Under the pieces are notes generated by a model, which searched no databases, was not told the DNA's origin, and saw nothing but the letters and a program-made list of their open reading frames with translations. Made by a program: the position numbers and the translations under genes. DNA of 45,044 nt from a virus (taxonomy: Duplodnaviria > Heunggongvirae > Uroviricota > Caudoviricetes). The stretch lies in the IMG/VR virus record IMGVR_UViG_2718217859_000007; one strand, written 5' to 3'. Positions 38,830 through 40,468 of the stretch are shown here, piece after piece (within the stretch, counting starts at the first letter, position 1; the number at the start of each line of letters is the position of its first letter).

Positions 38830-39468
38830 ATGGAATTTAAAGATTTACCAAAAGAAATCCAGGAAATTGCAGCACATGCACTTCACCAACGTCTGAATGA
38901 AGTTGAATTAGAATCTGCAACGAAGAAAGACATTGATAATATGGCTCGTAATGTGCGCGATGCGTTTACCGGATTGTATTTCTGTGCGTCTGTAAATAAA
39001 CACGACTCAGAGAGTGTGGCAAAGAAAATTGCAGAAACGACAGCACAAAACATCAATACGAAACCAACGGAAGAAGAAATTGACCAGTTTACCCGTGATG
39101 CTGGCTTAAAATGCAGGAAAGAAAAATCGCCATATGCGGGGAATATGTTTATTTATGACAACCTTATCCGAATTCGTGGCGAAATTCCAACTGAATACCT
39201 GGCAAGAATTCACCAGGCATTACTTAAAAATCTGGAAACGGAAGTATTTGATGGCAATACCAACGGCTCCTTCGTGGTGTCAACTCTCGCAAAAGAGTGG
39301 GATACAGATAATCGCTGGAATGTTGCCACATGGTTATTCAGCAACAAAGCTGCTGCCCTGGAAGCTGCGGCCTGTATTTGCGACCTGCTAAGGACAGACC
39401 GCAAATACAACCTGGATGTGTATAGCTATATTTATGCTGAACACTATCCGCTATGGATTAACTGGTAA
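38830..39468 (+). CDS. hypothetical protein (AT-rich early-region cargo)
   Basis: 212 aa, AT-rich codon usage, no family recognised. Confidence 0.5.
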   Translation: MEFKDLPKEIQEIAAHALHQRLNEVELESATKKDIDNMARNVRDAFTGLYFCASVNKHDSESVAKKIAETTAQNINTKPTEEEIDQFTRDAGLKCRKEKSPYAGNMFIYDNLIRIRGEIPTEYLARIHQALLKNLETEVFDGNTNGSFVVSTLAKEWDTDNRWNVATWLFSNKAAALEAAACICDLLRTDRKYNLDVYSYIYAEHYPLWINW

Positions 39469-39678
39469 TTACAAAGCTGCACCAGCAGGGCCACGGCGAC
39501 CAGCGCCACGATTGTAATCAATGATGCCATTATAAAGCGCATTATTTAATTTATCGTCGAATGCCGATTCTGTGAGCCCTAGCTCTGAATGAGTTTTTAA
39601 TAACCCTGATTGCCTGAGTTGATTAACCAGGTATTCAATCTGTTTTTCAATAAGCGGATGTATTGGCTTGTTTGGCAT
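39469..39678 (-). CDS. hypothetical small protein
   Basis: Start set at MPNKPIHP (ATG 39678) with GGAGGA 7 nt upstream; antisense to the early-left operon. Confidence 0.4.
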   Translation of the reverse strand: MPNKPIHPLIEKQIEYLVNQLRQSGLLKTHSELGLTESAFDDKLNNALYNGIIDYNRGAGRRGPAGAAL

Positions 39679-40041
39679 TTTATCCTCCATTGAAGTTACT
39701 GGTTGAGAATGGAGACCACACGTGACAGCGTGTTGTCGTGCGCCGGACACGGATAAGAATCCGGCACTGACAGTTTACTGAAAGGATATATCCCTGAAAA
39801 GTCAGGGCACAACACGAAAGCGCACAGCGAAGTCACTTCTCCCTCTGTTGCGTGCCACCGGCATCTTCGTCCGTGCGCTTTCGGTTGTGGCAATCCGCGA
39901 AATGGCGCGGCGGTAAGTATGGCAGGTGGTACTATTCTCCCCACCTGTGGAACACCGGGTTGTCAGGTTGACCATACGCTTAAGTGACAACCCCGCCATA
40001 ACTCATACTGCTATAGATATATGGGGTCTAACCGGAGGAAA

Positions 40042-40264
40042 AATGATAGTTCAATGCACAGACGGGAATAATAAGCTGCTCTGGTCATACGATACCGTCA
40101 GCCAGAAACACATAATGAATATGACTTTTATAAAGGACGGTACTCAACAAAAAATCATTACCGCCCTTGCAAGTGCATTAACTCAGGCGACAAGCCAAAT
40201 TCTGCTATCTGATAACGTTAATGGAGTATCTGATATTGGCTCGATGACCGGGAGGGAGAGCTAA
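40042..40264 (+). CDS. hypothetical small protein
   Basis: GGAGGAAAAATG start context; product MIVQCTDGNNKLLW.. (73 aa). Confidence 0.4.
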
Positions 40265-40468
40265 TACAACATTCCAGTAACCCGAGTGGGGCACGGTAAT
40301 ATTGGCAGGGAATCGTTCATAGAAACCGCCGTAATAGGTAAAACGCCCGCCCCGCTTGAAAGCTTGGTAATTTGAATCATCCATTAATAAAACATTAATC
40401 TGGTGTGAACATTGAACCCTGACAAGGTCACCATCATTCATGTGTTCACGACTATGTATATGGGACAT
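40205..40468 (-). CDS. hypothetical protein
   Basis: AGGAG 5 nt upstream of MSHIHSREH start; 87 aa; 3' end overlaps convergent plus-strand ORF by 60 bp. Confidence 0.5.
   Translation of the reverse strand: MSHIHSREHMNDGDLVRVQCSHQINVLLMDDSNYQAFKRGGRFTYYGGFYERFPANITVPHSGYWNVVLALPPGHRANIRYSINVIR

Follow-up and report, generated by a model that had tools for sequence, protein, structure and literature searches.

DUF1883 (Pfam PF08980) is a widespread domain to which no function has been assigned in Proteobacteria. It is a frequent fusion partner of bacterial TIR domains (PMC9153377), and a recent study linked it to the control of cell division: C. difficile MrpB, an 87-amino-acid (aa) DUF1883 protein, acts together with the 81-aa MrpA, and both are required for the phenotype; MrpB pulled down MrpA, both proteins pulled down MinD, and two-hybrid testing was described (PMC12694794). 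Apart from this modulation of cell division in C. difficile, there is no precedent from experiments for a DUF1883 protein that stands alone (PMC12694794), and a literature search for PF08980, Atu1913, or ybl81 returned no papers. The second system of relevance is the Qin prophage's dicBF operon in E. coli K-12, for which no internal promoter was found and an RNase III-generated 5' end of a 190-nucleotide (nt) DicF species was reported (PMC10448788). The stretch of DNA analyzed in this study (45,044 nt, IMG/VR record IMGVR_UViG_2718217859_000007; in the following, the window) is a lambdoid E. coli prophage, and the block of four small genes under investigation (38830-40468) lies inside its early-left, Qin-type dicB operon. 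Two of these genes code for an 87-aa DUF1883 protein and, on the opposite strand, for a 73-aa protein (the partner); they converge with overlapping 3' ends and are referred to here as the module. The other two genes code for proteins of 212 and 69 aa. The original prediction, made by a model from the sequence, had correctly placed the block in the early-left region; it had missed the identity of this region as a dicB operon with DicF replaced, the 69-aa gene, which lies stop to stop with its neighbor, and a leader of 260 nt.

DUF1883 loci were collected from GTDB species genomes and IMG/VR with hidden Markov models built in this analysis. A homologous partner gene was present in 107 of the 118 loci, always convergent and always overlapping, and the partner was never found apart from DUF1883. 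The recurrence of the arrangement indicates that the convergent overlap goes beyond chance. The loci span about 30 distinct flank contexts. The 11 loci without a partner comprise truncated contigs, a single decayed copy, and, for the most part, chromosomal genes of alphaproteobacteria. The module is thus conserved, mobile, and phage-borne, and it consists of two protein-coding genes with an obligatory tail-to-tail overlap; we have little doubt that it is a genuine convergent two-protein unit. No description of such a convergent overlapping pair was found in the searchable literature.

The overlap in the window amounts to exactly 60 bp, as had been predicted, and the start of the partner gene needed a correction by one nucleotide, its ATG being at 40043 rather than at 40042. 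In the family as a whole, overlaps of 12 to 240 nt (stop codons included) occur, and the mode is 21 nt. The mode results from the partner frame continuing through the reverse complement of the last DUF1883 codons to a chance stop. As the length is set in this way, the constant feature is the zero intergenic space and not a fixed overlap length. In a copy with 87% DNA identity (loci L007 and L008), homology spans the region from the partner Shine-Dalgarno (SD) sequence to the SD of DUF1883; within the overlap, nine of the ten substitutions relative to L007 fall on the third position of DUF1883 codons.

The settings of the module differ widely. The DUF1883 gene is located between tail genes in Klebsiella phage ST13-OXA48phi12.5, in tail regions of E. 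coli and Klebsiella prophages, next to the CI repressor in Yersinia prophages, and between lysis genes and terminase in Pseudomonas phage vB_Pae_U8. In these four settings it is antisense to its neighbors, and a homologous open reading frame (ORF) of 59-62 aa converges on it and overlaps its 3' end. Overall, the flanks of the module include genes for the Rz spanin, antiterminator Q, tail proteins, CI/CII, endolysin, holin, methylase, and terminase, which are the classic moron sites of temperate phages. Near the module of locus L021, an Rfam match to sar, an antisense RNA of the P22 type from the ant region, was detected at 5242-5311 (45.2 bits, gathering score 43).

The 87-aa protein was identified by Pfam as DUF1883 over residues 3-87 of 87 (86.7 bits, cutoff 26) and matched PDB entry 2B1Y (Atu1913) with an E-value of 4e-6. 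Judged by sequence, its closest characterized relative is the cell-division modulator MrpB of C. difficile, which is also 87 aa long and is 36% identical over the full length (E 3e-20); for this comparison, the MrpA and MrpB sequences were rebuilt from the S8 table of PMC12694794. All 64 close DUF1883 homologues have a length of 55-137 aa and contain PF08980 only. The ratio of nonsynonymous to synonymous substitution rates (dN/dS) was 0.065 (Nei-Gojobori, 72 unique modules), indicating purifying selection, and 25 synonymous and four nonsynonymous codon changes separate the gene in the window from that of L007.

For the partner, an exhaustive HMMER search of a library of 1.8 billion proteins yielded homologues in 25 clusters at 50% identity, nearly all of them 45-100 aa long. 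They share a core, M-K-V...W...DGTQQKII-AL--AL-QA, and the start codon (MKV...), the SD, and this core motif are kept from Pseudomonas to Enterobacterales and beyond. The median dN/dS was 0.25 in the same set of modules (1344 pairs), which again indicates purifying selection, and the antisense frame of the partner was open in only six of the 72 modules. The AlphaFold2 model consists of a three-stranded beta sheet followed by a long helix (predicted local distance difference test, pLDDT, 78.5) and had no significant structural match in PDB or BFVD; the top BFVD match is a 37-aa protein, probably the truncated partner of the Klebsiella phage. In this phage, ST13-OXA48phi12.5 (L009, 4244-4438), the partner ORF contains an in-frame stop and is annotated as a 37-aa protein, and in vB_Pae_U8 (L010, 4160-4432) it is unannotated. 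No similarity of the partner to MrpA was found by BLASTP or by profile comparison with hhalign, and a tblastn search against deposited phage genomes gave no match. In some phages, the partner domain forms the C-terminus of predicted proteins of 220-298 aa (P0194, P0198, and P0200), whose N-terminal part has no confident Pfam match; these could be real fusions, read-through products, or gene-calling artefacts.

The block had been described as consisting of orphan genes. This does not apply, since each of the four ORFs has a PHROG family to which it matches, the 87-aa protein belongs to DUF1883, and the 212-aa protein has more than 150 homologous clusters. The strong SD sequences that had been reported for its small genes on both strands were confirmed for three of its four genes: the 73-aa and 69-aa genes have GGAGG, and the 87-aa gene has AAGGAG. 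Remote homology and structure searches, which had been suggested for the two larger minus- and plus-strand products, matched the 87-aa protein to 2B1Y and gave no fold match for the 212-aa protein. No known housekeeping role in phages was assigned to any of the block proteins. The 87-aa product consists of the bare DUF1883 domain, with no TIR or other effector domain, and neither protein of the module has an enzymatic or membrane domain (nuclease, TIR, membrane, NTPase) in Pfam or NCBIfam. NCBIfam returned nothing meaningful for the four block proteins, PADLOC-DB v2 (2023 library) returned no family for any of them at E-values up to 1, and the module pair had no match to a toxin-antitoxin (TA) family in Pfam, NCBIfam, or PADLOC.

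Alignment and junction sequences revealed that a 525-bp cassette carrying the module sits exactly in place of the 75-bp DicF segment. In the whole window, DicF was not detected by Rfam at gathering or E-value thresholds, and there was no sequence match with up to three mismatches. The cassette allele was found in seven of 5426 complete E. coli genomes, each time in the DicF slot, and had no DNA match in deposited phages. In E. coli A34 (L004, 3519-3596), a 'tRNA-OTHER' annotation directly follows the DUF1883 cassette, and Kil is encoded downstream in place of DicB.

Directly upstream of the cassette, the structured leader of the dicBF transcript is retained. It was found in 4418 of the 5426 complete E. 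coli genomes and aligns to K-12 and to phage Tritos with 81-83% identity; its folding z-score against shuffled controls was -3.5 on the plus and -4.7 on the minus strand. Covariation in the leader is weak, with four to seven compensatory pairs that leave the strand undecided. In nine copies of the leader hairpin, the stem of about 25 bp is almost invariant, and the apical 40 nt or so are hypervariable and wholly different in sequence. The reported 5' end of the 190-nt DicF species of K-12 maps to about position 39878 of the window, and as this is on the 3' arm of the hairpin, the leader was recognized as the known dicBF processing site. By homology, the RNase III processing hairpin thus appears to have been kept in the window though DicF is gone. 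The possibility of a retron-like or otherwise novel non-coding RNA was considered for the leader and rejected.

The orientation of the module relative to its surroundings is biased. In 27 dereplicated contexts, 147 long flanking ORFs were on the strand of the partner and 40 on the strand of DUF1883, and both nearest flanks were on the partner strand in 18 of the 27. The partner gene starts at most 42 nt after the preceding co-directional gene in about seven of 20 contexts; on the side of DUF1883, no gap is shorter than 50 nt, and the median is near 150 nt. An extended -10 promoter-like element precedes the DUF1883 gene in the window, and the pattern TGnTAnnnT recurs at -37 to -41 from the DUF1883 ATG in at least four lineages with otherwise dissimilar upstream sequence. 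Consensus scans of the window, L055, L014, and L010 gave no terminator-like site inside either gene or between them; in the latter three, the module is bordered on both strands by outward terminator-like hairpins just beyond its ends. The extended -10 is missing from another group of lineages (L021, L070, L034, L088, L115, and related ones). Its members share an element made up of TTCAGCCCGTC, a hairpin, and GAGGGATGGCTGATTACCTCT, located directly before the SD, about 20-110 nt upstream of the DUF1883 ATG. This element had no Rfam match and could be a regulatory RNA structure or an operator.

The other half of the block occupies the slot of K-12 ydfC, which is replaced here by the 212-aa gene and the minus-strand 69-aa gene. 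The 212-aa ORF was present on the plus strand as had been stated, and no relationship of its product to YdfC was found. Its family, called 'Ybl81' in some sources, comprises 155 homologous clusters at 90% identity, from Escherichia and Salmonella only. The AlphaFold2 model of the 212-aa protein was poor (pLDDT 56), and Foldseek gave no match at E ≤0.001; a weak RPA32-like PDB match of residues 1-75 (E 0.035) was regarded as noise. The same residues 1-75 are common to four other PHROGs of different lengths, which do not share the C-terminal two thirds, and the N-terminal 50-88 residues (38830-39090 in the window) are the only part with relatives in deposited phages. These relatives are encoded in the early regions of 74 deposited phages, most of which are Stx phages. 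The pattern suggests that the N-terminus is a shared module, or that a mosaic or recombination joint lies inside the gene.

The 212-aa and 69-aa genes constitute a second convergent pair, in which stop abuts stop with a gap of 0 nt. This tail-to-tail pair recurs in E. coli loci L001 and L126-L129 and in the Salmonella element L120-L121, and a 221-aa variant of the 212-aa family is paired with a different minus-strand gene. The 69-aa protein had no PDB, Pfam, NCBIfam, or PADLOC match and no tblastn match in deposited phage genomes, and no convincing promoter of its gene was seen by eye. Elsewhere, the ydfC slot holds a GhoS-annotated gene or unrelated genes of 136, 156, and 170 aa, all of them in minus-strand orientation; E. 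coli AREA_497 (L006) has an empty slot. GhoS is a type V antitoxin by annotation, and no GhoT is annotated beside it. The 212/69-aa pair is polymorphic cargo in a hot spot.

The features of the region are listed in Table 1. Repressor, ydfA, ydfB, dicB, and ydfD are on one strand in the order of Qin, collinear with K-12 and phage Tritos, and an alignment with Tritos, a K-12-like Qin prophage, and E. coli 401651 showed a backbone that is collinear except for two swaps. The presence or absence of both cassettes among otherwise collinear prophages, the roughly 30 contexts of the module, and the position-conserved extended -10-like element agree with the original prediction of independently regulated cargo. 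The description of the block as AT-rich holds against the whole window (44.3% versus 50.7% GC) and against the late genes (53.8%); it does not hold locally, since the surrounding early region has 46% GC and dicB-ydfD 41%.

Upstream, a 63-aa RelB-family antitoxin and a 96-aa RelE/ParE-family toxin are encoded between the repressor and the operon promoter, a position at which K-12 Qin has no such pair. The promoter-like site that follows is likely the equivalent of dicBp, judging from its sequence, and its position agrees with that of dicBp upstream of ydfA in K-12 (PMC10448788). The sub-threshold STnc100 match covers the conserved 5' leader of dicB, and many phages, some of them labelled in their records as Aeromonas or Actinobacillus phage, have this segment with about 90% identity. 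Elsewhere in the prophage, a full-length sok antitoxin RNA (115 bits), which implies a hok/sok-type locus, and two tRNA genes were found (31787-31962 and 27173-27323).

Table 1. Features of the dicB operon region and its cargo. Positions refer to the window unless a locus is named.
Feature	Position	Strand	Basis or remark
Helix-turn-helix repressor (Pfam HTH_3)	37267-37767	+ (operon order)	Pfam
RelB/ParE-type pair	37785-38266		between prophage repressor and operon promoter
Strong terminator-like hairpin	38278-38301		3' of RelB/ParE-type pair, 5' of dicBp-like site
Promoter-like site TTTACA-17-TATTGT with TG	38328-38356	+	consensus scan; context, outside the cargo
ydfA (DUF1391)	38455-38688	+	Pfam DUF1391, 95.3 bits; conserved part from residue 28
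ydfB	38681-38818	+	collinear with annotated ydfA/ydfB of E. coli genomes
212-aa 'Ybl81'-family protein (phrog_2151)	38830-39468	+	E 1.6e-123, 212/212 positions
69-aa protein (phrog_4274)	39469-39678	-	PHROG match over full length, E 3e-40; SD GGAGG 5 nt before ATG
Structured conserved leader of dicBF transcript, 260 nt	39737-39996	+	counterpart of ydfC-dicF intergenic region of Qin
Long hairpin in leader	39808-39890		corresponds to RNase III processing site by homology and predicted structure
525-bp cassette	39997-40521	both	left junction ...GTGACAACCCCGC, right junction AAAGTGAATTTTGTG... (alignment, junction sequences)
73-aa partner (phrog_21096)	40043-40264	+ (with dicB operon)	SD GGAGG 4 nt before ATG
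Overlap of the two 3' ends, 60 bp	40205-40264	both	
Stand-alone DUF1883 protein, 87 aa	40205-40468	- (antisense to operon)	Pfam PF08980; SD AAGGAG
Extended -10 promoter-like element TGATATAAT	40498-40506	-	ends 29 nt upstream of DUF1883 ATG; by reading
STnc100-like dicB leader	40506-40699	+	Rfam STnc100, 41.3 bits, gathering score 47, E 7e-7
dicB	40683-40871	+	Pfam DicB, 130.8 bits
ydfD (DUF1482)	about 40868-41071	+	Pfam DUF1482, 75.8 bits
823-aa exonuclease	41152-43623		downstream of ydfD
Integrase	from 43914		downstream of exonuclease
Minus-strand ydfC-slot cargo of related prophages	L005 2399-2683; L004 2332-2742; L123 3677-4147; L007 342-854	-	

Our preferred reading, to which we assign a probability of about 0.45, is that the module encodes a life-cycle-gated protein pair with mutually exclusive convergent expression. 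DUF1883 would have an extended -10 promoter to itself and be transcribed in the direction opposite to the phage operon, and would for this reason probably be made in the lysogen. The partner would be made when the surrounding phage operon fires; in the window, it would be translated from the polycistronic RNA of dicBp after RNase III processing at the retained leader hairpin, an assignment to dicBp that follows from the lack of an internal promoter in the K-12 operon (PMC10448788). With no terminator between the genes, each transcript would run antisense through the other gene, and transcriptional interference together with RNA duplex formation would make expression either/or. The DUF1883 protein may be a small beta-sandwich binder with no catalytic domain that acts by binding a host or phage protein, and the partner would bind it and neutralize or re-target it during the lytic growth of the phage itself. 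The gating by the life cycle, as deduced from sequence features, is the more tentative part of this reading, and any specific target of the module would be improbable if named. Taken further, the pair might represent a new kind of phage-borne switch, in which two small proteins are encoded by convergent transcripts that are antisense throughout, the first being made in the lysogen and the second only when prophage operons fire, and in which both jointly control a process in the host, for example cell division, the envelope, or the exclusion of incoming phage; the stand-alone DUF1883 protein would then be the free-living version of the sensor domain fused to TIR effectors. We regard this extension as speculative and rather doubtful.

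Several observations weigh against mutually exclusive, life-cycle-gated expression. The promoter and terminator calls are consensus matches that did not exceed shuffle controls and serve as leads only, and the flank gene calls behind the strand bias are ORF-based and crude. Certain contexts (Yersinia L014, for example) offer the partner a separate promoter-like site and roughly 200 nt of space upstream, so that it need not depend on a phage operon. The alphaproteobacterial chromosomal DUF1883 genes have no detectable partner at all. Furthermore, the overlap may be mere tight packing, as its length varies with the position of a chance stop. The MrpAB precedent, finally, is a loose analogy because MrpA and the partner are unrelated and the two mrpAB genes point in one direction and are co-transcribed.

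Alternatively, both proteins could be made together and act as an MrpAB-like complex that perturbs division or the envelope via Min or FtsZ and substitutes for DicF beside DicB, the convergent layout being only compaction. MrpA and MrpB together caused elongated cells and misplaced septa and share MinD as a pull-down target (PMC12694794), the window protein resembles MrpB in length and over its full sequence, and the cassette replaces an ftsZ-targeting small RNA directly upstream of dicB. However, the second component is not homologous, C. difficile is phylogenetically remote, and the dicB operon is one of about 30 contexts, the others being lysis, tail, Q, or cI sites; convergent, fully overlapping transcription also disfavors co-expression, and we consider such a complex unlikely. 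To the same degree unlikely is a lysogen-protecting defence or superinfection exclusion system, TA-like or abortive, in which DUF1883 senses or binds a component of the incoming phage and the partner regulates it. Moron positions in temperate phages, the orientation antisense to phage operons, and the promoter-like element of its own would suit this role, as would the recurrent fusion of DUF1883 to bacterial TIR immune proteins (PMC9153377) and the fact that cargo in the same slots of other genomes includes genes of TA type, GhoS among them; DicB itself is also reported to protect against phages (PMC10448788). Yet PADLOC offered no match, neither protein carries an effector domain, and the layout resembles neither the co-directional type II TA systems nor type I, with its small hydrophobic toxin and antisense RNA.

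The remaining two explanations concern the block as a whole. If, in line with the anti-defence option of the original prediction, the plus-strand 212-aa and 73-aa proteins were early counter-defence proteins and the minus-strand genes unrelated to them, the location of both genes in the early-left operon, which in lambdoid phages houses accessory and anti-host genes, would be accounted for, as would the small size and the acidic or helical character of the products. This is improbable: the partner travels with DUF1883 into late-gene contexts (tail, lysis) and was never alone in the survey, so it is not tied to early expression, and no similarity to known anti-defence families was found in Pfam or PHROGs. 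That the small ORFs are chance ORFs or annotation noise, leaving only the DUF1883 and 212-aa genes as real, is hardly credible. PGAP calls the partner in just one of seven E. coli genomes, and there as a 49-aa version, and the comparison with L007, taken alone, gives the partner six synonymous and 13 nonsynonymous codon changes, both of which would fit noise; against this stand the family-wide constraint on the partner, including its start, SD, and core motif, and the full-length PHROG match of the 69-aa ORF together with its recurrence beside the 212-aa gene in Salmonella.

Temperate phages from Pseudomonas to Enterobacterales and beyond carry DUF1883 with a previously unrecognized and mostly unannotated partner, whose family has been overlooked by standard gene callers. 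The module is a concrete, cloneable two-gene unit and comes with a testable regulatory hypothesis. As DicF is located in a swappable slot downstream of a kept RNase III hairpin, the dicBF operon is a cargo platform.

Compared with known systems, the module combines familiar traits in an arrangement of its own. It resembles C. difficile MrpAB in having a stand-alone DUF1883 protein of about 87 aa and a small adjacent protein, MrpB working only with MrpA; in contrast, mrpAB is co-directional, co-transcribed, chromosomal, and controlled by CmrT, whereas the pair in the window is convergent, 3'-overlapping, and phage-borne. The operon around it shares with the dicBF operon of Qin the repressor, ydfA, ydfB, the RNase III leader hairpin, the dicB leader, dicB, ydfD, and the exonuclease, and differs from it by the loss of ydfC and DicF, which are replaced by cargo including two minus-strand genes. 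The same domain occurs in the TIR-DUF1883 fusions (PMC9153377) and in Atu1913 (PDB 2B1Y), and the window protein has it without TIR or another effector.

Type II TA systems are co-directional and co-transcribed and have a recognizable toxin fold, whereas the pair described here is convergent and matches no TA family. Type I TA loci with convergent, 3'-overlapping transcripts are known from B. subtilis prophages (txpA/RatA and bsrG/SR4), and they are similar in being prophage units whose overlap at the 3' ends gives antisense control; in the window, however, both strands encode conserved soluble proteins, with no small hydrophobic toxin and no evident non-coding antitoxin RNA. Lambdoid phages carry morons such as lambda bor, lom, rexAB, and sieB, and the module is similar to these in its insertion between conserved phage genes, its lower GC content, and its presence/absence polymorphism, as well as in the places of insertion, which are those behind Rz, within the tail genes, beside cI, and in the pL operon; it may likewise have a promoter of its own. 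In a classical moron, promoter, gene, and terminator form a unit on one strand, whereas the two genes of the module converge with overlapping 3' ends, one of them rides on the phage operon, and no terminator-like site lies in between. Phage morons and the combination of DUF1883 with a small partner are thus known; new is the convergent overlapping pair as a widespread module, which here displaced DicF.

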